Shown here: positions 2 to 37,033 of the stretch, piece by piece
Layout: the number at the start of each line of letters is the position of its first letter
Numbering within the stretch: the first letter of the stretch is position 1
DNA from: a virus
Virus record (IMG/VR): IMGVR_UViG_3300042259_000159
DNA: 64,000 nt
Strand: one strand, 5' to 3'
Made by a program: the position numbers and the translations under genes
Notes under the pieces: generated by a model
What the model was told of the DNA's origin: nothing
Seen by the model: the letters and a program-made list of their open reading frames with translations, nothing else
Database searches by the model: none

Positions 2-1516
2 GAAACATTCAAACGTTTTGGTGTAAGAATGGCCCGTTCCAGCGACGGTCTTTCTGTTTCAGCTATATATTACCCCTTTTATTCTCAGGACAAGAAGGTT
101 TGTGGATATAAGAAGCGCGACCTGACAAAAGACAAGCATGAGAGAGGCCACTTCACTGTGATAGGGCATGTCGGGGTAGATTGCATGCTGTTCGGGCAGA
201 ACCTTGCAAAAAAATCAAAGAAGGTTTTTATTGTTGAGGGAGAAAACGATGTACTGGCTTCATATCAGGCCATGAAGGACTTCATCCTTAAAGGCAAGCC
301 AGAATACAGAAACATGGAACCACCTGTGGTAGGCTTGTCATGTGGAACAGCAAATGCAGCAGCTGCTGTTGCAACAAACATAAGTTTTATAAACAGTTTT
401 GATGAGGTCGTTCTTGGTCTTGACAATGATGAAGCAAACCTTGTCGAAAAAAGAAAAGGGGTGAAGAAGGGGAAAGAGGCTACGGAGGATGTTGCAGGCA
501 TCCTTATGCGCGACAATATCTTTGTGGCGCACTACGAGGATGGATTTAAAGATCCAAACGATTATCTCATGCAAGGTAAGAGCACTCTTCTTGCAAACAC
601 GCTCATGTTTACAAAAAACAGGTATGTTGCAGAGAAGGTGGTGGGTGCCTCAAGCTTTTCTTTTGAGGAGATTATTGCTGAAAAAGAAAAAGGTGTTTAT
701 GTAGAGTCTTTCCCGAAAGTTATGGACATGATATATGGGATAAGAAAAAGGGAGATGATTGTTATTACCTCAATGTCCGGTGTTGGTAAAAGCTATTTTA
801 CATCAGAAATAGGTTACAGTCTTCTGGAGAAAGGTGCCACAGTGGGAGCAATTTTCCTTGAAGAAGAGGGTAAAGAGACAGTGCAGAGGATTGTGGCAAG
901 AAAGGCCAAGATAAACTTCAACAAGTTCAGATTTGCTTGCAAGAGCCTTGCCTCTATTGAGCAGTTGAGGCAGGCATACGATTGGACAACGGGGAAAGAT
1001 ATAGGGAAAGAAAGGCTTTATACCCTTAACCATTTTGGTTCCTTGCGTATTAATGACTTGATGAATAAGATAAAGTATTTGACATATGTTTGTAAATGTG
1101 ACTATATCCTTCTTGACCATTTAAGTGCTGTTTTGTCTGGACAAGATAGTAAAGATGAACGCAAGGAATTTGATATCCTTATGACCGAGCTTGCTGCTTT
1201 TGTATCCTCAAACGATGTTGGCATCATTGCCGTGTCACATCTTAATAGAAATGCAGCAGAGGAGATTAGAGGTCTTTCAAACCTTAAAGAACCTAAATGG
1301 ATATGCACCAAGAAGGAAGACCTCAGGGGTTCAGCGAGCCTTGAGCAGTTCTCATGGATAATTCTTGGGATTGACTTTGAGGTTAGACCTGATAGAACCA
1401 GAGGAAGAGCACGGATTACCGTTCTTAAAAATAGACCTCTGGGAACAATCGGTGTTGGTGATGTTTTTATATTGGACAATGATACTGGCCTCTTTATTAA
1501 CGCAGATATTGTATAG
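2..1516 (+). CDS. DNA primase/helicase (TOPRIM + DnaB-like helicase), 5'-partial at window edge
   Basis: Frame is open to the window start; TOPRIM-like FIVEGENDVLAS; Walker A ITSMSGVGKSY; T7 gp4-like domain order. Confidence 0.8.
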   Translation, partial: ETFKRFGVRMARSSDGLSVSAIYYPFYSQDKKVCGYKKRDLTKDKHERGHFTVIGHVGVDCMLFGQNLAKKSKKVFIVEGENDVLASYQAMKDFILKGKPEYRNMEPPVVGLSCGTANAAAAVATNISFINSFDEVVLGLDNDEANLVEKRKGVKKGKEATEDVAGILMRDNIFVAHYEDGFKDPNDYLMQGKSTLLANTLMFTKNRYVAEKVVGASSFSFEEIIAEKEKGVYVESFPKVMDMIYGIRKREMIVITSMSGVGKSYFTSEIGYSLLEKGATVGAIFLEEEGKETVQRIVARKAKINFNKFRFACKSLASIEQLRQAYDWTTGKDIGKERLYTLNHFGSLRINDLMNKIKYLTYVCKCDYILLDHLSAVLSGQDSKDERKEFDILMTELAAFVSSNDVGIIAVSHLNRNAAEEIRGLSNLKEPKWICTKKEDLRGSASLEQFSWIILGIDFEVRPDRTRGRARITVLKNRPLGTIGVGDVFILDNDTGLFINADIV

Positions 1517-1529
1517 AAGGAGTAGTGAA

Positions 1530-3950
1530 ATGAGATTCTTTACAATGGACTCTGAAGGAGATGGACTTGTAGATGAAATAACTAAGTTCCACTGTATTGT
1601 CTTCAAGGAGTATAAAAAGGAAAACATTTTTGTGTTTGTCGACAAAGAAAGAATGACAAAAGACATCTCAAAAGGTATAGAAAATGTATTCTCTAAATAC
1701 CGTTTTACTTGGGGGTATATAGAGGATTTTCCCAGATTCCTTAAGAGTGATATTGTTGACGGATTTCATTGTCATAACTTCTTCGGATTTGATCAGAAGG
1801 CCATTGAGAAACTGATACCGGAAATAAAGTTTAACCCCTTCATCAGACGTGAGGGGGTTCCGAGTACTGTTAATGTTGGTGGTTTTGAAAGAGACATACA
1901 CATTTATGACACCCTTCCAATGAGCAGAACGCTGCACCCAGACAGACCCCTACCTTCTGGGTGTCCTGCTAGGATTAAGAACCCTATAACAGGGAAGATG
2001 CAAAATGTTGGCCCCCACGGTTTTCAGGCTTGGGGATACCGTGTTGCAAGAGCAAAGCCGCAGATCGATGATTGGATAAATGACACACTTTTTAACTATA
2101 TACAACGGTGTGTTGCAGATACTGAAATCGGTGAAAAGGTTTGGGATGCCCTAAGGGTGGAGGCTCAAGACATAGCCACGGGTGGGGATTGGAAAAAACC
2201 GCTTAAGACATCAATGATAGATTTTTTTCTGTTTTGTGGTCAAGAGCAGGAAGGTGCCTTGTTGGATAAAGAGAAAGCGAAGACCCTTTGGGAAAGTATA
2301 AATAAAATGATGAAGGAGATAGCAGATGATGTAAATGCCTATCTTCTTGAGAAGAATGTTAGAAGGCCCCTTCCAAAAACAAAACAACCTAAATATCCTG
2401 CACAAACGTTTAAAAAAGACGGCACTCTAACAAATAATGCACTCAAGTGGTGTGATAGGGTTGGTATACCAGAAAAAGACGCTGAGAAGGCCATTCTGTG
2501 CATAAATAAGGCACTTAAAGAAGGGGATGAGAGTGTCCTTGAAAGGTATGTTTTGACGGAACAAGTCACTATTGCACACGATGCAGCCATTAAGGAGTAT
2601 CTTGTGGAAGAGGGTTGGGTTCCTACTCTTTGGAATATAAAAAACGCTTTTGTGAATCAGAAGAAAAAGGACTACACTCCTGAAGAGGTAGATGCAAACA
2701 TTGCAAAGTATATCAGTGAACTGAAGACAAGCCCTTATAAAAGATTTATTCTTAAAGAGTTGGATTGGGAAGGCATGGACACTGATAGAGCTTTAAGTAC
2801 CGAATCCTTCAGGAAGCATGTAAAAAGTAAAGGTAGGCAGCTTCCCACAACACCTAAAATAAAGGATGCCGCCACGGGTCGTATATGTCACAACCTTGAA
2901 GAGATGGATGGTGATTTTGCAAAGAAGGTTGTGAAATATGGTAGTTTGGAAAACAGACGTAATGTAATTCTTAGTGATAATGGAACTGGTTGGCTAACAC
3001 ACCCTAGACTTGAAAGGGACGGAAGAATACCTGCCAGCCATACAGGAACCACAAATACACACAGAGTTAAGCATTCAAACATCGTTAATATACCCAAGCC
3101 CGATCCTAAGGTTCTTTTGGGGTATGAGATGCGTGATCTTTTTGTTGCTCCTGAAGGGTGGATGTGTGTTGGGTGGGATAGTGCCGCTCTTGAAAACAGG
3201 GTTGCGGGGAGTGCTGCATACCCCTATGATGGGGGCAGATATGCAGATATTCTTCTCTTAGCGGACAGCCATACCCTTAATGCCCAAGCTTATTCTAAAG
3301 CAGCGGGGAAGGAAATCACAAGAAATAATGGCAAGTCTGTGACGTATGGAATTTTATACGGAGCACAGGCAAAAAAGGTTGCAAAAATGCTTGACATTTC
3401 CGTGGAAAAAGCACAAGATGTTATCAATGCTTTTTGGGATTCCAACGATGGTTTGAAGAAGTTTAAAGAGCATCTTGAGGCTTATTGGGAGAGCACAGGG
3501 AAAAAATACATCCTCGGACTAGATGGTAGGAAGGTTTATACAAGAAGTAAGCACAGCCTTGTAAATGCAGCCTTCCAATCCTGCGGTGCCATTCTTATGT
3601 CGCACACTATGGTGGAGATTGAGTATAGAAGGAGAGAGCAGGGTCTTATTGCTCCTCGTTGGGGATTTTATCATGATGAGGGGCAGTATTATATTCCTTT
3701 TACAAAAGATAAAAGTCTTTTTGATTTTGTGATTCAGGATGAAAAGGATACCCCAAAACCAGATGACAGGATGTGGACAAAAGCAAGAGAGATAAAAGAA
3801 GGCAAGGCGGCAGGCAAGTTTGTGAGGTATTACAGCCGTTTTGGAGAGTTGTGTGTTGAAACCCATAGGGATGTAGGTGTAATGCTTGGTATGAATATTC
3901 CTCTTGACGGGGAATACATGGTTGGTAAGAGTTGGGCACAAACACATTAA
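1530..3950 (+). CDS. DNA polymerase, family A (T7 gp5-like)
   Basis: ATG at 1530 follows GAAGGAG at 1516-1522; N-terminus MRFFTMDSEGDGLVDEITKFHC and motifs KGLDGRKVYTRSKHS, YHDEGQY resemble T7 DNA polymerase as recalled. Confidence 0.85.
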   Translation: MRFFTMDSEGDGLVDEITKFHCIVFKEYKKENIFVFVDKERMTKDISKGIENVFSKYRFTWGYIEDFPRFLKSDIVDGFHCHNFFGFDQKAIEKLIPEIKFNPFIRREGVPSTVNVGGFERDIHIYDTLPMSRTLHPDRPLPSGCPARIKNPITGKMQNVGPHGFQAWGYRVARAKPQIDDWINDTLFNYIQRCVADTEIGEKVWDALRVEAQDIATGGDWKKPLKTSMIDFFLFCGQEQEGALLDKEKAKTLWESINKMMKEIADDVNAYLLEKNVRRPLPKTKQPKYPAQTFKKDGTLTNNALKWCDRVGIPEKDAEKAILCINKALKEGDESVLERYVLTEQVTIAHDAAIKEYLVEEGWVPTLWNIKNAFVNQKKKDYTPEEVDANIAKYISELKTSPYKRFILKELDWEGMDTDRALSTESFRKHVKSKGRQLPTTPKIKDAATGRICHNLEEMDGDFAKKVVKYGSLENRRNVILSDNGTGWLTHPRLERDGRIPASHTGTTNTHRVKHSNIVNIPKPDPKVLLGYEMRDLFVAPEGWMCVGWDSAALENRVAGSAAYPYDGGRYADILLLADSHTLNAQAYSKAAGKEITRNNGKSVTYGILYGAQAKKVAKMLDISVEKAQDVINAFWDSNDGLKKFKEHLEAYWESTGKKYILGLDGRKVYTRSKHSLVNAAFQSCGAILMSHTMVEIEYRRREQGLIAPRWGFYHDEGQYYIPFTKDKSLFDFVIQDEKDTPKPDDRMWTKAREIKEGKAAGKFVRYYSRFGELCVETHRDVGVMLGMNIPLDGEYMVGKSWAQTH

Positions 3951-17333: not shown

Positions 17334-17574
17334 TCAAAAAACCTCAAAACAACATAAATAACAGGAGCACACTATAACTGACCGCACATTCTTTATCCAC
17401 CTTATATCCGGCCACGTTGCTACGCTCGAAGAGTGGAGGGCAGACTATAAGTCAATGGATGCAGAACTATGGCACGGCAAGCCCGCTGAAGAGTGCAACC
17501 CTGATGAATGGCTTAAAGACGGCCTCCTTGAGGAATATGAAGCGGATCCCAACGAATAAAGCAGTTACACCACA

Positions 17575-17600
17575 GAGGCACCTATGAGGTGCCTCTTCTT
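17575..17600 (+). terminator. rho-independent terminator
   Basis: Perfect 8-bp stem gaggcacc/ggtgcctc, loop tatga, then ttctt. Confidence 0.55.
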
Positions 17601-17949
17601 ATGCCTACTAGCGCCGTTATCAGGGTAACGGCAGGAATCAGCGGGAAACATGTATATAAGGAAAGAAAAACTAAAAGATAACCTAGGACATACGTAAGAG
17701 GTAAAAAGCATTAGAAGGCGCATAAGGGGCACTAAATATGCCCCTTATTTGTTTGTGTGTCTAATAGGCTTTGTGTGTGCAAAAAGGCTTGTATAGCGGC
17801 TTTATCATGGAAGCCGCGCATACAGGCAAGGCTTTTAGCACTATATATGCACAGATACGGTGTATCCGTGAATATGGTTAATAATCTCTAAATACCTGCC
17901 CGAAAGATATGAAATATCTTGAGGGGGGAAACACACAATAATCCTCCTG

Positions 17950-18240
17950 TCAAGTGTTACTGATTTTGAATATCATTATCAATGGAGATATTGTCATTGA
18001 ACAGCATAACGCTGTTATACACACGGATCAATTAATTCCCATCGATCAGCATTTCGCTGGTGCTGCTGGAATCAACACTTGTTGAGATAATGACATCCAT
18101 TATCAATGCTGTTCAATGGCCGTTTTCAACGGCAATGTTTCACGTGAAACATTCCTGATCAGAATACTGGCAAGAAACATTGATAACGACAATCTTTATC
18201 AACGTATCTGGCGATCCTTTCAGGTTAACACAAATCTGGA
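17950..18240. repeat. TTATCAA(T/C)G repeat cluster with dyad symmetry (cattgaacagcat / atgctgttcaatg)
   Basis: Direct reading; non-coding. Confidence 0.7.
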
Positions 18241-18279
18241 AGAAAGTAAAGTAATATAAATTTTAATAAGGGGTTGACA

Positions 18280-18960
18280 TCTTCCTGATATTTTGATATT
18301 ATAGAAAGAGAGGCGTATGGGGAGGGGGGAGGCCTTAAGCACCGGTATACTTATATACCAAGTACCCCTATAGGTTCATGCCGGATATTTGCCCAAGTAC
18401 CCCTATAATGGTATACCGATATACTTATACACACCATATCTGCACACAGAAGGTATAGGGGGATATTTCCTGCTAGGATATTTCCACACAAAAAGGGGGA
18501 GTATATGGGAGGGATATTCCTGAAGGGAATAGATATTTTAGACAGGTATATATATATTATCTCTATGCTATATATACTCTATATATGTATATTCCATATA
18601 TACATATTTCTTCTTATTCTATTCTTCTATTTCTACTAATGAGATATATACATATTAGGACAGCATATGCATGTGTCTACATCACATGTAGACACATATA
18701 TACACATTCCCTTTCCTAACGGACAGCCGTATTATAACATATTTTTTGGATTTTGTCAAGAACTTTTTTGTATTTCACATGGAAAATATTTCATACCGGC
18801 TATTCCTTTTGGGAATAGCCTATTCCATTTTGGAATAACCATTCCTAGGGGAATAGCCTGTTCCCAGAGGGAACAGACATACCCGAAGGGAATAGATATG
18901 CCCATTGGAAATAGCAAAAGCCCACACACCTGTAAAGATATGTGGGCTGATAACATTAAC
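18280..18960. repeat. iteron-like array (TTCC-N5-GGAATAG units) plus TA-rich low-complexity repeats
   Basis: At least 6 units such as ttccttttgggaatagcc, ttccattttggaataacc, ttcctaggggaatagcc; aagtacccctata twice. Confidence 0.7.
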
Positions 18961-19018
18961 AGTGTTAATAACATTAGCGAAGCTAATAATATTTTATCCT
19001 ATCAATCAATACCTGTAG

Positions 19019-19249: not shown

Positions 19250-20100
19250 GACTCCACGGAATCAAGCAAACTTGGCTGCTTATTTCTACGGCTAATAGCC
19301 TCGGCGTCTAGCCGCTTAGCGATTATCTCGCAGTACTTTTCTTCGCGCTCTATCAGGATCCAGCGGCGGCTAGCACGCTCGGCTGCAACTGCTGTTGTGC
19401 CGCTGCCCGCGCAGAAATCAAGCACTGTTTCACCTTCGTTGGTGTAGGTTTTGATGAGGTATTCCATTAGGGCAACAGGTTTTTGGGTTGGATGGAGTGC
19501 TTCAGAGTCTTGGCTAAATTTAATAACACCGCGAGGGTAGTTTGTAAATTCTTGTTTATAGCTTTCAGATTTGGTCAGATCATTATGTACACTTGTCCTA
19601 TCCCCATTCTCTTTTAGAGAATCCTTCCGTGTCTTTGTCCCCGTGTTTTTTACCACCTTGTCCACCTTTACAAGCCCCTGCGCGTTATAAGTTGGCTGCT
19701 TGCGGTAGAATACAAGCACGTCCTCAAATCCTTTTAGCGGCATCCTTTTGGCATTGGGGAAATTTGTTGGACGACCTTTCTCCCAGACCCATGTGTATTT
19801 AAGCATTTTGAGATTACTAGCCCCCAAAAGACTTGTAAACGGCTGGCTAGCAGTCATAACAACAGCCCCACTAGGCTTGATAGCCCGCTTCAACTGCTCC
19901 CACATTGGCTCTAGCGGAATAATGCTATCCCACTTACACGCCGTCATTCCAATTCAGCCGTAGGGTGGATCGCATAACACCAGGTCTATAGAGCCGTCTG
20001 GGATATATTTCATAACCTCAAGACAATCTCCATGAACCAACGTGTTAGGCAATACGCACCCTACGTGCTGTATCTCCTTTTCGTTAGTTATAGTAAACAT
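19246..20100 (-). pseudogene. DNA methyltransferase (N6A/N4C type) interrupted by a single in-frame TGA after the DPPY motif
   Basis: Minus-strand reading ...LVLCDPPYG-TGA-IGMTACKWD...; C-terminal FCAGSGTTAVAAE motif I; start overlaps the HNH stop (TAATG). Confidence 0.65.
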
Positions 20101-20642
20101 TAAATAAAATACTCCTGTATGTTTAGTTTCAAATTATTCCAATCTGTTTGTGTCATATCATTTTTGCACCTATTTTCAAACCACGACAAAAACTGCAAGT
20201 TTTCTATGTCATTAGTTCCTCCTTTTGCTTTTGGTGTTATGTGGTCTATTGATGGCTTTTTGTATTTTTCTTTACCGCCGCTAACCCATCTTTCATAAAT
20301 CCTATTAAATTGATCGTCATAGTAAAACCTACTTATATAACTTTTGTACCATTCAGTTGATATGTCCCATCTGCCTGAACGATTCGTAATTACATCATTT
20401 AACAGCTTTAATTTATCAAAATCCTTAAACTGCATTAACCAATCAGTCGTTACGTCAAACCTCAAGTGTGTTGCCATGTTGTTATAATTGCGCTCAATAT
20501 CACAATTAAATTTTTTAACACCTCTTAGATTCTTGGGCTTTCTGGTCTGTACCCCATTTCTCTTCAGGATTCTTGATATTAGTTTGTGATTAGTACCTAG
20601 CTTATCCGCTATAGAGCGCATTGAATCGCCACTTTTGTACAA
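20100..20642 (-). CDS. HNH homing endonuclease with N-terminal HTH
   Basis: SIDHITPKAKGGTNDIENLQFLSWFENRCKND. Confidence 0.7.
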   Translation of the reverse strand: MYKSGDSMRSIADKLGTNHKLISRILKRNGVQTRKPKNLRGVKKFNCDIERNYNNMATHLRFDVTTDWLMQFKDFDKLKLLNDVITNRSGRWDISTEWYKSYISRFYYDDQFNRIYERWVSGGKEKYKKPSIDHITPKAKGGTNDIENLQFLSWFENRCKNDMTQTDWNNLKLNIQEYFI

Positions 20643-20647
20643 TTCAA

Positions 20648-21049
20648 CTAATGGATAAATAGGTAATCCCCAATCTCCTCGGGGCGTTTAGCATTTTTTA
20701 CCTGCTCATTATAAGGAAGAACCAAGAGTTCACCAACAGCATCCCTTTTGGATACAGGCAGTTTTTCTTCCAGCCGTTTTTGCATAGACTCGGAGTCCAT
20801 TCCCATCAACAGCTCAAAAATCTCCAAATCTTTTAGACGATTATCGGTGGCAGGTAGAAGCGATCCAAGTATACAGGCTTTATTGAGTATCAGGGGTTTG
20901 CGCCCTTTCCAGTAACTGCCAAGAGCGGTCAATGTTTTGCTCTGAACAGCGCTCTGTTCTTTAAAACTTTCAGCGGATATTTTTTGCACTGGAAAGAGAT
21001 GTTCAATCAGTGCCGGTTTATCTTTCCATTCGAACGGTTTCAGTGCCAT
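20648..21049 (-). CDS. hypothetical protein
   Basis: Start MALKPFEW overlaps the upstream stop (TGATG). Confidence 0.4.
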   Translation of the reverse strand: MALKPFEWKDKPALIEHLFPVQKISAESFKEQSAVQSKTLTALGSYWKGRKPLILNKACILGSLLPATDNRLKDLEIFELLMGMDSESMQKRLEEKLPVSKRDAVGELLVLPYNEQVKNAKRPEEIGDYLFIH

Positions 21050-21423: not shown

Positions 21424-22248
21424 TTAGATGATTGCTTTATTCTCATGTGCACTCTCAATGCGCCGCTTGGCAATGTTGAAATAGCCTTGGTCTAGCTCAA
21501 TACCGATAAAGCAGCGGTTCAGCAGCTTGGCCATCTTGCCAGTCGTACCGCTGCCCATGAAGGGGTCGAAAATCGTATCGCCTTCGTTTGACCAGCTTGA
21601 TATATGTCTTTGCGCTAATTTTTCAGGAAAAATTGCAGGGTGCTTAAACGCCTCACTATCCATTGTTGAGTGACCTTTACCTGTCGTTATGTACCATATA
21701 TTTCCATCTATCTTATCTAATCCAACTGGTTTCCTTTTCTTGCCACTTCTGGCACTGCGCATTTTTTCAGTTGTAGATGAAAAATAACTGTTCTGACGTG
21801 AAGTTTCTTTTTCCGGATATTTTGTCGGAACTCGAATGGCGTTAAAGGTTTTAGGTCTACCCTTACTAAAAACAAACATATACTCAAAATCTTGTTCGTA
21901 TCTGTTGTGGTTTTTCGGTAGTGCGTTTTTATGGTATATCATCGTATCATGCAGCCGGAAGCCGCACTCCATAGCCCACAATGCTTGCTTAAAGCTAGTA
22001 CCTGTCTCACTACCCTTAATCGTGGCGTCACCAACAACCCAAACAACAACCCCACCATCTTTAGTAACACGGTATAGGTCTTTAATAACCGCCTTCCAAA
22101 CATGCTCTCCCCACAACGCATTATTGCCGTTATAAGTGCGCAGATTATCGTATGGTGGGCTTGTTACCGTTAAATCAACAATACCATCAGGTATTTCTTT
22201 CATCCGCTCAAGGCAATCGCCTAGCATCAGCTTAATCATCATCACCAC
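21424..22248 (-). CDS. DNA methyltransferase (beta-class N6-adenine/N4-cytosine)
   Basis: Motif IV SPPYD near the N-terminus, motif I DPFMGSGTTG near the C-terminus. Confidence 0.8.
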   Translation of the reverse strand: MVMMIKLMLGDCLERMKEIPDGIVDLTVTSPPYDNLRTYNGNNALWGEHVWKAVIKDLYRVTKDGGVVVWVVGDATIKGSETGTSFKQALWAMECGFRLHDTMIYHKNALPKNHNRYEQDFEYMFVFSKGRPKTFNAIRVPTKYPEKETSRQNSYFSSTTEKMRSARSGKKRKPVGLDKIDGNIWYITTGKGHSTMDSEAFKHPAIFPEKLAQRHISSWSNEGDTIFDPFMGSGTTGKMAKLLNRCFIGIELDQGYFNIAKRRIESAHENKAII

Positions 22249-22465: not shown

Positions 22466-23182
22466 TTATATTTCCGAAAGACGCTTGTTTCCCCTGAACC
22501 TTTTACCTTCCGAGTAATTTATTCTCTCCTCAAGATCAAGCATCCTCGCCCACAATTCCGGCTTATTATTTTTAACAGCCAAAAGGCTGTCCAAGGGTTG
22601 AAGGGGGCAGCAATAGCAGGATACCCTATTCATGTGTTTGTAGAGGCCCCCCCAATCAAAGCCCCTATCATAGCAGTATTCAAGGGCTGATTTTTCGTCC
22701 ATATCCCACTCTATCAAAGGAAAACGAAGAATCCATCCATGTTTTTCAGCATTAGCATTCATTGTTCTAGAGAGCGCCCTCTCTGATTCATCTTTTGCAA
22801 AGCCAATACACTTAACAATGTTACCATCTATTTTTTTATAGCTCATCCCCCTCAAATAGTAATCAAAAGCTTTTATCTTTTCTCTTGTACACCACCTTCT
22901 AGACGGTGATGGCCATCCAACACCACGGCACCTTACTTCTTTAGTCCCCCTAGAGACCACTTCGTGCTCCGTAAGCCAATAATCAAAGGGTTTGTTTGGT
23001 TTGAGTATGGTGATTTTGCGAGAAATATAGTCTTCAACCTTTTTGATATGATCATACATCTCGGGAAATTCCCAACCTGTGTCAAACATAACAATGTCTT
23101 CAATCTTTTCTCCACATTCAATGGCCTTCAAAAGCATTGCTGTAGAATCCTTTCCCCCGCTAAAACTAAAAAATTGTCGCAT
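22466..23182 (-). CDS. PAPS reductase-like PP-loop ATP pyrophosphatase family protein
   Basis: PP-loop FSGGKDS; C-terminal cysteine cluster SCYCCP. Confidence 0.6.
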   Translation of the reverse strand: MRQFFSFSGGKDSTAMLLKAIECGEKIEDIVMFDTGWEFPEMYDHIKKVEDYISRKITILKPNKPFDYWLTEHEVVSRGTKEVRCRGVGWPSPSRRWCTREKIKAFDYYLRGMSYKKIDGNIVKCIGFAKDESERALSRTMNANAEKHGWILRFPLIEWDMDEKSALEYCYDRGFDWGGLYKHMNRVSCYCCPLQPLDSLLAVKNNKPELWARMLDLEERINYSEGKRFRGNKRLSEI

Positions 23183-33953: not shown

Positions 33954-34037
33954 TGGTAGGAGAAGAGAGATTCGAACTCTCAAGGAATAATCCGTCGAGG
34001 CTTAAACTCGATGTGTTTACCATTTCACCATTCTCCC
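33954..34037 (-). tRNA. tRNA-Leu (anticodon UAA), type II, CCA encoded
   Basis: Manual fold: acceptor GGGAGAA/TTCTCCT, anticodon loop TTTAAGC, long variable arm, T-loop TTCGAAT. Confidence 0.65.
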
Positions 34038-34045
34038 GTATTTTT

Positions 34046-34067
34046 TATCTACCATTCCGCCATTCCC
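34046..34067 (-). other. orphan tRNA 5' fragment (Leu-like acceptor + D-arm)
   Basis: GCGGGAATGGCGGAATGGTAGA with no matching 3' half. Confidence 0.4.
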
Positions 34068-34076
34068 GCATTTATT

Positions 34077-34153
34077 TGGTACCCACTGTGAGATTCGAAC
34101 CCACACTAATCAGTTTCTAAGACTGATGCCTCTGCCAAGTTGGGCTATACCAG
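34077..34153 (-). tRNA. tRNA-like gene (class I, anticodon UAG) with mismatched acceptor stem; probably chimeric or disrupted
   Basis: D-arm, anticodon arm TCAGT-CTTAGAA-ACTGA and T-arm fold, but 5' ACTGGTA does not pair with 3' AGTGGGT. Confidence 0.4.
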
Positions 34154-36853: not shown

Positions 36854-36940
36854 TGGTGCCCAATGCAGGACTCGAACCTGCACGCCATTTCAGGCAGGAG
36901 GGCTTAAACCTCGTGTGTCTACCAATTCCACCAATCGGGC
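36854..36940 (-). tRNA. tRNA-Leu (anticodon UAA), type II, CCA encoded
   Basis: Manual fold: acceptor GCCCGAT/ATTGGGC, anticodon loop TTTAAGC, long variable arm. Confidence 0.6.
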
Positions 36941-36949
36941 TAAAATCTT

Positions 36950-37033
36950 TGGTGCCTCAGACAGGATTCGAACCTGCACGGATCTCTCCACTTGGTCCTA
37001 AGCCAAGCGTGTCTGCCATTCCACCACTGAGGC
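36950..37033 (-). tRNA. tRNA-Leu (anticodon UAG), type II, CCA encoded
   Basis: Manual fold: acceptor GCCTCAG/CTGAGGC perfect, anticodon stem CTTGG/CCAAG, loop CTTAGGA. Confidence 0.65.

Follow-up and report, generated by a model that had tools for sequence, protein, structure and literature searches.

We examined a window of 64,000 nucleotides (nt) from the IMG/VR virus record IMGVR_UViG_3300042259_000159, and all coordinates given here are those of this window. The window is phage genome, with a cluster of eight tRNAs and long blocks of structural genes, and a megablast of the region against phage genomes returned no close cultured relative. The locus under study lies on the minus strand, where a gene for an HNH homing endonuclease is followed by a DNA methyltransferase (MTase) gene that is interrupted directly after its catalytic DPPYG. 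The strand reads GAT CCA CCC TAC GGC TGA ATT GGA ATG ACG GCG TGT AAG TGG GAT, or D P P Y G * I G M T A C K W D. An earlier sequence-only reading, made by a model, had given this site as LVLCDPPYG-TGA-IGMTACKWD with both halves in the same frame, and we likewise found an open reading frame (ORF) of 48 codons and one of 233 amino acids (aa) in one frame. Its claim that the first half starts on the HNH stop in a TAATG was also correct, as the ATG of the 48-codon ORF overlaps the TAA stop of the HNH ORF. The overlap suggests that the HNH and MTase genes are co-transcribed.

Features of the interrupted MTase locus and its proposed recoding elements, in window coordinates
Feature	Position	Strand	Remarks
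HNH homing-endonuclease ORF	20100..20642	minus	N-terminal helix-turn-helix (HTH), C-terminal HNH motif (DHITPKAKGGTNDIENLQFLSWFENRCK)
Approximate left edge of the sequence identical to L003, putative cassette/co-conversion boundary	20648..20690	minus	inside the 3' end of the DUF1156 ORF
MTase N-terminal module (N-module), cassette-borne	19954..20100	minus	48 codons MFTITNEKEIQHVGCVLPNTLVHGDCLEVMKYIPDGSIDLVLCDPPYG and stop
5' arm of the stem	20057..20074	minus	ORF nt 27-44; core CGTAGGGTG at 20065..20057, codons H-V-G-C
3' arm of the stem	19951..19967	minus	P-P-Y codons, GGC, UGA, AUU; core CACCCTACG at 19967..19959
Proposed take-off codon GGC (Gly48)	19957..19959	minus	Gly or Tyr codon before the stop in relatives
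9-nt coding gap TGA ATT GGA	19948..19956	minus	stretch missing from intact homologs
Stop codon of the gap	19956..19954	minus	
Spacer ATT of the gap	19953..19951	minus	
Proposed landing codon GGA of the gap	19950..19948	minus	
Resume codon ATG	19947..19945	minus	ACN (Thr) in relatives
MTase C-terminal part, 233 aa	19246..19947	minus	same frame as the N-module; motif I FCAGSGTT; TGA stop overlaps the ATG of the next ORF

Intact homologs of 70-81% identity read DPPYG-T-TACKWD at this place, and the window differs from them by nine extra nucleotides, TGA ATT GGA. The joined MTase matched Pfam N6_N4_Mtase (PF01555) with residues 38-261 over profile positions 1-220 of 221 (E = 4e-31), and the 281-aa protein joined by skipping the gap matched phrog_67 (DNA methyltransferase) over residues 19-266. 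In the joined protein, the DPPY at residues 44-47 (motif IV) precedes the FCAGSGTT near the C-terminus (motif I). Judged from these matches and this motif order, the joined pieces are a complete beta-class N6-adenine/N4-cytosine DNA methyltransferase. The Joint Genome Institute (JGI) gene call for the window MTase covers 219 aa.

The C-terminal piece was called identically on eight contigs from at least four samples or assemblies, and all eight possess the same site. One of them is a variant, L003, whose every difference from the window lies upstream of the HNH gene, where it gives the contig a 4% divergence. An assembly error, named by the sequence-only reading as what would overturn it, is contradicted by this agreement. 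That reading had also described a single opal codon separating the halves; the TGA is indeed in place, but no sense codon was mutated to a stop, since the site holds a net 9 nt more than intact homologs. Its suggestion of recent pseudogenisation by a point mutation fails because the 9-nt insertion is conserved in diverged phages, the N-terminal piece is under constraint and the downstream ORFs are intact. An opal-suppressor tRNA, which it had proposed to look for, was absent from the eight tRNAs that ARAGORN found in the window. Genome-wide reassignment of TGA (code 4 or 25) was considered for the window and rejected, as its ORFs are long under code 11; the 47 long ORFs end in TAA (31), TAG (10) or TGA (6), and TGA is also the MTase's own terminator. 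These comparisons indicate that the TGA is a real feature and not an assembly error, a point mutation or a pseudogene, and it is very probably part of a conserved, HNH-linked coding gap.

The selective constraint on both halves was then estimated. Among gap-bearing relatives, the N-module has a synonymous divergence (dS) of 0.76 and a ratio of nonsynonymous to synonymous divergence (dN/dS) of about 0.10, and by this measure it is under purifying selection. For the C-terminal part a dN/dS of about 0.13 was obtained, which is only a rough estimate because synonymous sites are saturated. Within the window's family, identity at third codon positions stays near 0.8 through the N-module and falls off past the gap. 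It was noted that gap alleles have a median of 44 codons before PPY, compared to 27-28 in intact alleles, amounting to about 16 extra N-terminal codons. This N-terminal extension is conserved in gap alleles, which is explained at least partly by the RNA helix described below. At the nascent end, DPPY(G) is common to all alleles, being the catalytic motif.

We searched viral contigs, metagenomes, and genomes or metagenome-assembled genomes (MAGs) for variable spacing between PPY and TACKWD; metagenome and intact-allele counts refer to the matches listed. At least 146 unique contexts were found, and at least 139 of these contain an insert led by a stop codon. The inserts of the latter are 3 nt (1), 4 (19), 5 (15), 6 (10), 7 (12), 8 (12), 9 (59), 10 (7) and 11 nt (4) long. 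MTases 73-81% identical to that of the window occur in other genomic contexts with the same 48-codon ORF and the same stop amid varied surroundings, and the junctions of relatives read GGC TGA ATT GGC ACC, GGC TGA CTT GGA ACT and GGC TGA ATT GGT ACT. Where PPY, four codons and TTACKWD follow one another, all 13 IMG/VR contigs have a stop at that position, two of them TAG. The stop stands directly after a Gly codon GGN or the Tyr codon of DPPY in every one of the at least 139 stop-led contexts except one with AGC (Ser).

At least 70 junction types were listed, in which the stop is TGA (46), TAA (14) or TAG (10) and the next base is C or A in 50 of 70. The spacer of the gaps is almost free of G, and in the 9-nt class the spacer codon is mostly ATT, CTT, ATA, ATC or CTA (Ile/Leu) and the following codon mostly GGN. 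Among the 47 listed types in which the codon before the stop (the proposed take-off codon) is Gly, the last codon of the gap (the proposed landing codon) is GGA (19), GGC (13), GGT (7), AGC (3), AGT (1), CGC (1), TGC (1), AGA (1) or GTT (1); thus it is GGN in 39 and has G at position 2 in 46. Tyr take-off codons are paired with landing codons of the form N-A-Y (AAC, GAC, AAT, GAT), after which decoding would resume at GGN. From these counts it appears that the landing codon is matched to the take-off codon at positions 2-3, and that the rule acts on nucleotides and not on amino acids.

Downstream ORFs of about 200-230 aa are open in whichever frame the insert imposes, and more than 95% of them are intact. 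The sister cassettes L043 and L071 have gaps of 8 and 9 nt, respectively, with N-modules that are 93% identical, and L113 (8 nt) and L140 (10 nt) carry an N-module of the window's own type. Since gaps of sister cassettes can differ by one nucleotide, the gap is not read triplet by triplet. In L029 (GGA TAA T TAA GGA ACA), a stop shuts the downstream frame just ahead of the final gap codon, and a simple +/-1 frameshift is thereby excluded at this locus. In every gap class, a jump from take-off to landing codon gives back the canonical DPPYG-T-TACKWD.

In 13 contigs TGA encodes Gly (code 25), where it stands at conserved glycines of the same MTase. The junction in these contigs reads TAC TGA TAA N(1-2) TGA ACN, so that take-off and landing codons are both TGA and the gap stop is TAA, and the HNH-plus-gap cassette is still present. 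These contigs, whose code is of the Gracilibacteria/Absconditabacteria type, are L023, L031, L036, L040, L046, L059, L087, L089, L090, L098, L110, L127 and L133. The bins and hosts of gap alleles include Bacteroidota, Cyanobacteria, Firmicutes, Saccharibacteria and code-25 hosts.

Several unusual alleles were also encountered. In L078 (Ga0172378_10001504; TAY TTA C GGT ACA), a 4-nt frame-breaking insert is led by the rare Leu codon TTA; this single example is reminiscent of the UUA-led gaps of the Streptomyces phage PhiHau3 and could equally be a TAA-to-TTA mutant. Rare sense versions were observed in L088 (GGT AAT GGG ACA) and L131 (GGG AAC GGC AAG), which encode DPPY-G-N-G-T/K. They resemble 7-nt gaps (GGN TAA N GGN) minus one nucleotide, in which case the insert would have been "resolved" into two extra residues. 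The Leptolyngbyaceae cyanobacterium MAG CBDHHL01 carries the same 5-nt allele, GGT TGA GC ACG (landing codon AGC), on six contigs (L288, L289, L292, L300, L303 and L304), which suggests a multi-copy element or several related prophages. The 4.4-kb contig L014 (IMGVR_UViG_3300005613_002790) has two intact copies of a TACKWD-type MTase and one gap-bearing copy in tandem.

A cultured example was found in Geobacillus phage vB_GthS_PK3.6 (L286, OP341627.1), where positions 1174..1951 contain a 7-nt gap in the reading CDLPY GGT TAA C GGC ACG ACA GCG TGT AAA TGG. The gene is annotated as two "DNA-methyltransferase" coding sequences, gp63 and gp64, and the paper describing vB_GthS_PK3.6 does not mention a split MTase. 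A search of phage genomes turned up no HNH homolog in PK3.6. PK3.6 and PK5.1 were considered as an isogenic pair with and without the gap and were rejected as such, because the PK5.1 allele belongs to a diverged subfamily.

The HNH gene was then examined in relation to the gap. The ORF matched Pfam HNH (PF01844) at 27 bits (cut-off 21.4) with the motif DH-x14-N-x8-N; it also matched HTH_38 as well as HNH and endonuclease VII PHROGs. Homologs of this protein, 33-99% identical, were found at about 85 loci, which include every gap-length class and the code-25 phages. Among the 94 gap alleles with at least 750 nt upstream, 47 have a full-length HNH gene and 13 a partial copy or C-terminal remnant, compared to none within 1.5 kb upstream of the 125 intact alleles among the matches listed. 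All 48 full-length homologs are co-oriented with the MTase; they stop 118-219 nt (mode 134) short of PPY and so abut the start of the MTase. The HNH link proposed by the sequence-only reading is thus much stronger than that reading suspected, with the HNH gene and the gap forming one linked unit. In intact alleles, the putative HNH target region, which is the DNA coding for DPPYGTTACKWD, shows high nucleotide-level conservation.

A comparison with the contig L003 places the approximate left edge of this unit. L003 is about 25% diverged from the window just upstream of the shared block, with all 76 mismatches at 20690..20981, and it is 100% identical from 20690 through the HNH gene and the MTase. 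Such a mosaic would be the pattern expected of a homing cassette converting diverged resident alleles.

The start of the HNH gene is uncertain. Its longest ORF starts at TTG 20642 and the JGI call at ATG 20621 (173 aa), with the stop TAA at 20102..20100. The frame is also open upstream of the first canonical start (20621..20690, minus strand; ..GLPIYPLVELYKSG), where it runs into the end of the DUF1156 ORF, and profile positions 1-15 are missing from the HTH_38 match. The protein could begin at TTG 20642, at ATG 20621, or at a non-canonical or coupled start. The overlapped 133-aa ORF (20648..21049, minus strand) contains only the N-terminal DUF1156 domain (Pfam E = 8e-20), a domain that normally heads adenine methylases of about 900 aa. 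The L003 copy has 85% protein identity, and because the differences fall mostly at third codon positions, the ORF appears to be a selected small protein. Its last 14 or so codons are inside the block identical to L003, so the cassette may have replaced the 3' end of this gene.

An HNH homolog with 47% identity was observed in Vibrio phage VnaP (L285, ON212104.1; 2262..3206). It follows an MTase N-fragment ending in ...DLVLTDLP-stop and is itself followed by a further annotated "DNA methylase" fragment, so that the HNH gene has seemingly been inserted at the DPPY site of an MTase that decayed. Pseudoalteromonas phage H101 is similar. The HNH homologs of VnaP and H101 were rejected as cultured examples of the element, since they adjoin decayed MTase fragments but in a different arrangement.

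We also assessed whether RNA structure distinguishes gap alleles. The 156-nt module of the window has a minimum free energy of -57.1 kcal/mol, compared to -35.9 +/- 3.4 in shuffled sequences (z = -6.16; 0 of 200 shuffles as stable), and the landing codon GGA is the first unpaired triplet after its stem. Over the 100 nt before take-off, gap alleles averaged -29.7 kcal/mol and intact alleles -17.0 (p = 2e-27), while the GC content from -90 to -30 was about equal (0.36 and 0.35, respectively). The stronger fold of gap alleles is due to a long-range helix between an arm about 100-110 nt upstream of the stop and an arm at P-P-Y and the take-off codon. The best helix free of mismatches has a median of 9-10 bp (maximum 17) in 113 gap alleles and 5.5 bp in 121 listed intact alleles (p = 9e-30). 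The 5' arm sits in the N-terminal extension of the gap alleles, and the loop of the helix is about 90 nt.

The two arms vary together, as in the pairs CCGTAGGGTG:CACCCTACGG, CCGTAGGGCG:CGCCCTACGG, TCATACGGAG:CTCCGTATGG, CCATAGGGA:TCCCTATGG and TAGTACGGAGG:CCTCCGTACTG, and PK3.6 has the pair TATGGAAGG:CCTTCCATA with the latter at the take-off site. RNAalifold applied to all 113 N-modules gave no consensus because the 5' arm lies in different registers across the classes, and it was replaced by explicit pair counts with an intact-allele control. In a MAFFT alignment of all classes, 68.5% of the cells were paired compared to 61.2 +/- 0.6 in shuffles, and cells changed on both sides numbered 102 compared to 44.9 +/- 5.5, a value reached by none of 500 shuffles. 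The covariation score was 0.246 and at most 0.164 in any slid register. At the third position of the first Pro codon, the column pair was UA (26), CG (22), AU (16), GU (13) or GC (5), and the frequent G-U pairs point to a structure of the sense-strand RNA. By these counts, gap alleles specifically possess a covarying long-range helix with the take-off region. An Rfam search of the region around the junction gave one sub-threshold hit only, which is unrelated to the junction.

A separate hairpin was observed at 19903..19926 (minus strand), with equivalents elsewhere, in which the codons AAR-TGG-GAT (K-W-D) pair with ATT-CCN-NTN (I-P-L/F). It begins some 13-16 nt 3' of the landing codon, just as far away as the 3' barrier stem-loop is in phage T4 gene 60.

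We propose, with a probability of roughly 0.7, that the gap is decoded by a ribosomal hop. The mobile cassette would consist of the HNH gene, an MTase N-module of about 48 codons and a short insert directly after the catalytic DPPY(G). The ribosome would translate the N-module and pause while its P site holds peptidyl-tRNA(Gly) on GGC and its A site holds UGA. The tRNA would then unpair from the take-off codon, the ribosome would advance by 9 nt, and the tRNA would re-pair with the landing codon GGA. Decoding would resume at the ATG at 19947, giving an MTase of normal length (...DPPYG-M-TACKWD..., junction YIPDGSIDLVLCDPPYGMTACK). The helix pairs the N-terminal extension with the take-off region; it could re-form behind the ribosome and would probably promote its forward movement, a role that has been suggested in T4 gene 60 for the 5' and extended stem-loops. 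The insert probably interrupts the HNH target in the DPPYGTTACKWD-coding DNA of intact alleles (GAYCCNCCNTAYGGNACNACNGCNTGYAARTGGGA), which would make the carrier immune, and the HNH gene could then spread by homing and gene conversion while its carrier is protected.

The wider claim, which we hold with somewhat more reserve, is that these loci would form a large natural family of short-range bypass elements ("stop-hops"). Such a family would comprise helix-aided gaps of 3-11 nt after the DPPY(G) of phage DNA MTases, borne by HNH cassettes, in several phyla including code-25 hosts and with PK3.6 as its cultured example. The family would parallel T4 gene 60 and MobA as a second such system, of independent origin and far greater diversity.

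Several observations weigh against a hop. Within the 9-nt class, the window is alone in having ATG as its resume codon, so that local re-initiation is possible for this phage. The diversity of the downstream parts may pre-date the arrival of the cassette, and intact ORFs alone are therefore no proof of function after invasion. The landing rule is broken in L039 and L106 (GGG ... GTT), L082 (GGT ... AGA) and L066 (TAT TAG C). An HNH gene is lacking in 34 of the 94 gap alleles; these "hit-and-run" alleles retain the gap and the ORFs. The idea that the 3' edge of the stem tracks the landing codon was true for gaps of 9-11 nt and false for those of 4-5 nt (Spearman p = 0.11), and it was rejected. 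The K-W-D/I-P hairpin was likewise rejected as a dedicated 3' barrier signal, because it is no stabler in gap than in intact alleles and shows the same synonymous codon usage. Being equally stable in intact alleles, this hairpin is pre-existing and was not selected, and it might have pre-adapted the site for hopping. Neither an A-site stem-loop like that of gene 60 nor a Shine-Dalgarno-like element was seen in or near the gap, for which no dedicated scan was run, and gaps of 3-11 nt offer too little room for a stem-loop. Synthetic stop-hops reportedly reach only about 1%.

Two further points against the hop bear on programmed readthrough, whereby UGA would be decoded by a near-cognate tRNA and the MTase would gain three residues (DPPYG-X-I-G-MTACKWD). 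The pieces in the window share a frame, so readthrough would give a plausible protein for in-frame gaps, and the sense versions G-N-G-T (L088) and G-N-G-K (L131) imply that the loop tolerates two extra residues. The mostly Ile/Leu spacer codons of the 9-nt class, followed by GGN, and the leaky context of UGA before A or C would also suit it. However, TAA and TAG replace TGA within the 9-nt class, none of the 9-nt inserts among the matches listed has a sense codon in place of the stop, and the same N-module lineage has 8- and 10-nt gaps that readthrough could not repair. The last gap codon is moreover constrained in its nucleotides (AGC, CGC, TGC) and not in its amino acid, and no suppressor tRNA is present in the window. 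We consider readthrough unlikely on this balance. The sequence-only reading had offered a stop that is read through or recoded, and of this recoding stands in spirit; the use of all three stops and the frame-shifting 8- and 10-nt gaps of related cassettes favour bypassing over readthrough. The two would differ at the protein junction, which would read YIPDGSIDLVLCDPPYG-W-IG-MTACK (W or another residue) after readthrough and YIPDGSIDLVLCDPPYGMTACK after a hop. There is practically no chance of an error in sequencing or assembly, of a selenocysteine codon or of a reassigned code. UGA does encode selenocysteine, Trp or Gly in some systems and some related contigs use TGA for Gly, but independent assemblies agree, TGA ends 6 of the 47 long ORFs including this MTase, TAG or TAA takes its place in relatives, and the gap stop is TAA in phages with TGA as Gly. 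For selenocysteine, the downstream hairpin is equally present in intact alleles, and no Rfam family matched at the junction.

The MTase could also be a split enzyme, in which translation would terminate at UGA, the 233-aa piece would be re-initiated at the ATG 6 nt downstream, and the product would assemble non-covalently with the 48-aa peptide. The ATG resume codon of the window would allow this, the annotated start of PK3.6 gp64 is an ATG that TAT GG creates in the downstream frame, and genes split by homing endonucleases are known, such as the phage Aeh1 NrdA split by mobE. Against it, ATG, GTG and TTG are all missing near the junction from the downstream frame of 103 of 139 listed contexts (36 have one), and the same is true of 57 of the 58 listed contexts of the 9-nt class, the window being the exception. 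Start codons being this scarce, separate initiation of the C-terminal part is no general alternative. TAT is not preferred over TAC where an ATG would arise, the cut would fall directly after the catalytic DPPY loop, and the landing-codon rule and the helix would be left unexplained; a split enzyme is thus quite unlikely. We regard as very unlikely a dead MTase, in which the insert would only destroy the HNH target, intact ORFs would reflect recent invasions and the hairpin would be a 3' stabiliser or terminator of the HNH mRNA. The much greater divergence of the downstream parts than of the cassette fits repeated horizontal invasion, the window phage has a second intact N6_N4 MTase (21424..22248), and a long hairpin lies immediately 3' of the HNH stop. 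This explanation conflicts with the dN/dS of about 0.10 over a dS of 0.76 in an N-module that always ends at the stop and keeps its MTase motifs. It also conflicts with the more than 95% of downstream ORFs that are intact although the cassette is old, as seen from HNH identities down to about 33% and at least 70 junction types. Merely disrupting a DNA site would need neither a stop after the take-off codon nor a matched landing codon nor a G-poor spacer, and HNH-less alleles keep the gap and the ORFs.

Other features of the window were noted outside the cassette. The second N6_N4 MTase, which is uninterrupted and has an SPPY motif, lies just upstream on the minus strand, and together with a gene similar to 3'-phosphoadenosine 5'-phosphosulfate (PAPS) reductase at 22466..23182 (minus strand) it suggests a small DNA-modification gene cluster in this phage. 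The tRNA cluster contains the pair tRNA-Leu(UAA) and tRNA-Leu(UAG) twice, at 33954..34145 and 36854..37033 (minus strand), about 2.9 kb apart, suggesting a duplicated segment. At 17400..19000, where the plus-strand block of genes meets the minus-strand block and cumulative GC skew is at its maximum, about 1.6 kb have no long ORFs; this stretch looks repetitive and AT-rich and could hold terminators, an origin or a non-coding RNA. Finally, the plus-strand ORFs 29..1516 (495 aa) and 1365..3950 (861 aa) overlap by about 150 nt in different frames, which may reflect a misplaced start or another case of recoding or of a split gene.

Efficient natural bypassing has so far been known almost entirely from T4 gene 60 and its homologs, the others being the mitochondrial byps of yeast and one tentative case in a Streptomyces phage. 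If the hop is real, the family would amount to a natural mutational scan of about 140 unique sequences and 70 junction types, with gap lengths from 3 to 11 nt, two tRNAs for take-off, all of the stops and two genetic codes represented. What take-off, landing and mRNA-driven ribosome movement minimally require should become apparent from such a scan. It would also give independent support to the view that homing endonucleases "pay" for a self-immunity insert with a recoding signal. For annotation, MTases of this kind are called as an ORF of 40-50 aa and a truncated gene, as in PK3.6 gp63/gp64 and the 219-aa JGI call of the window, and they are then dismissed as pseudogenes, so that phage MTases are undercounted. 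The culturable thermophilic phage PK3.6 carries the element and would offer an experimental system. No prior description of MTase genes with stop-led gaps at DPPY was found in the full text of PMC and bioRxiv, with subscription-only papers outside reach.

Among short hops, a 2016 recoding review (PMC5009743) writes on in-frame stop hopping in nature that "no occurences are known". The synthetic stop-hops in E. coli discussed there (Weiss, Dunn, Atkins and Gesteland 1987) are alike in that peptidyl-tRNA hops from the codon 5' of a stop to a nearby matched codon, with 9 nt yielding one amino acid; they are artificial and of low efficiency, whereas the gaps described here are natural, conserved and accompanied by an RNA helix. 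The terminase of Streptomyces phage PhiHau3 (Smith 2013; Antonov 2023, PMC10732093) also has short frame-breaking inserts in a conserved phage gene. A landing codon and flanking RNA structure are part of the bypassing proposed for it, and a UAA-led version of the PhiHau3-type 10-nt gap was bypassed in E. coli according to mass spectrometry. The PhiHau3 gaps differ in being 7-10 nt long, led by the hungry sense codon UUA and proposed as regulatory through sensing of the bldA tRNA, with only three genes known; L078 has TTA in place of the stop. The passages of PMC10732093 consulted report no linked homing endonuclease, and the gaps studied here are stop-led, abundant and endonuclease-linked.

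The mitochondrial byps of Magnusiomyces capitatus (Lang 2014) are likewise numerous short untranslated inserts with matched take-off and landing codons and are thought to be mobile. They differ in their length of 27-55 nt, their mitochondrial location, their scatter across many genes and the lack of an HNH partner. Genes split by free-standing endonucleases, such as Aeh1 nrdA/mobE, are alike in that an HNH-family gene is associated with a phage gene, essential or conserved, that is interrupted yet still functional. There the endonuclease ORF splits the gene and two polypeptides assemble, while the MTase genes usually have no second start codon.

The closest likeness is to T4 gene 60 and MobA (Huang 1988; Bonocora 2011; Manning & Atkins). 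In both systems an HNH gene stands immediately upstream of a cassette-encoded N-segment of about 45-48 codons, a stop directly follows a Gly take-off codon (codon 46 in T4, 48 in the window), a matched landing codon is present and the insert lies beside a conserved catalytic motif. Both elements are present or missing among related phages, both have "hit-and-run" alleles without the HNH gene, and in both the insert presumably shields its carrier from self-cleavage. The T4 MobA cassette has been described as an HNH gene with a bypass insert that blocks self-cleavage and leaves a conserved protein preserved (bioRxiv 10.1101/2022.08.31.505936), and it has been proposed that the mRNA, by pairing as it leaves the ribosome, drives forward bypassing (bioRxiv 10.1101/2024.12.09.627546). 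The differences are several. The gene 60 gap is 50 nt long in a topoisomerase II gene, and the gaps here are 3-11 nt in a DNA MTase, with no room for an A-site stem-loop. The T4 HNH gene splits its host gene into two ORFs, whereas here it lies upstream of the whole MTase, and the HNH protein is smaller than MobA (173-180 aa, HTH then HNH), the likeness being one of architecture and general HNH membership. Take-off occurs at Tyr as well as Gly codons, the arms of the long-range helix enclose a loop of about 90 nt, and the hosts span several phyla including code-25 bacteria. The MTase gaps apparently follow the same logic as gene 60 and MobA, with a new target gene, gap size, RNA signal and host breadth.

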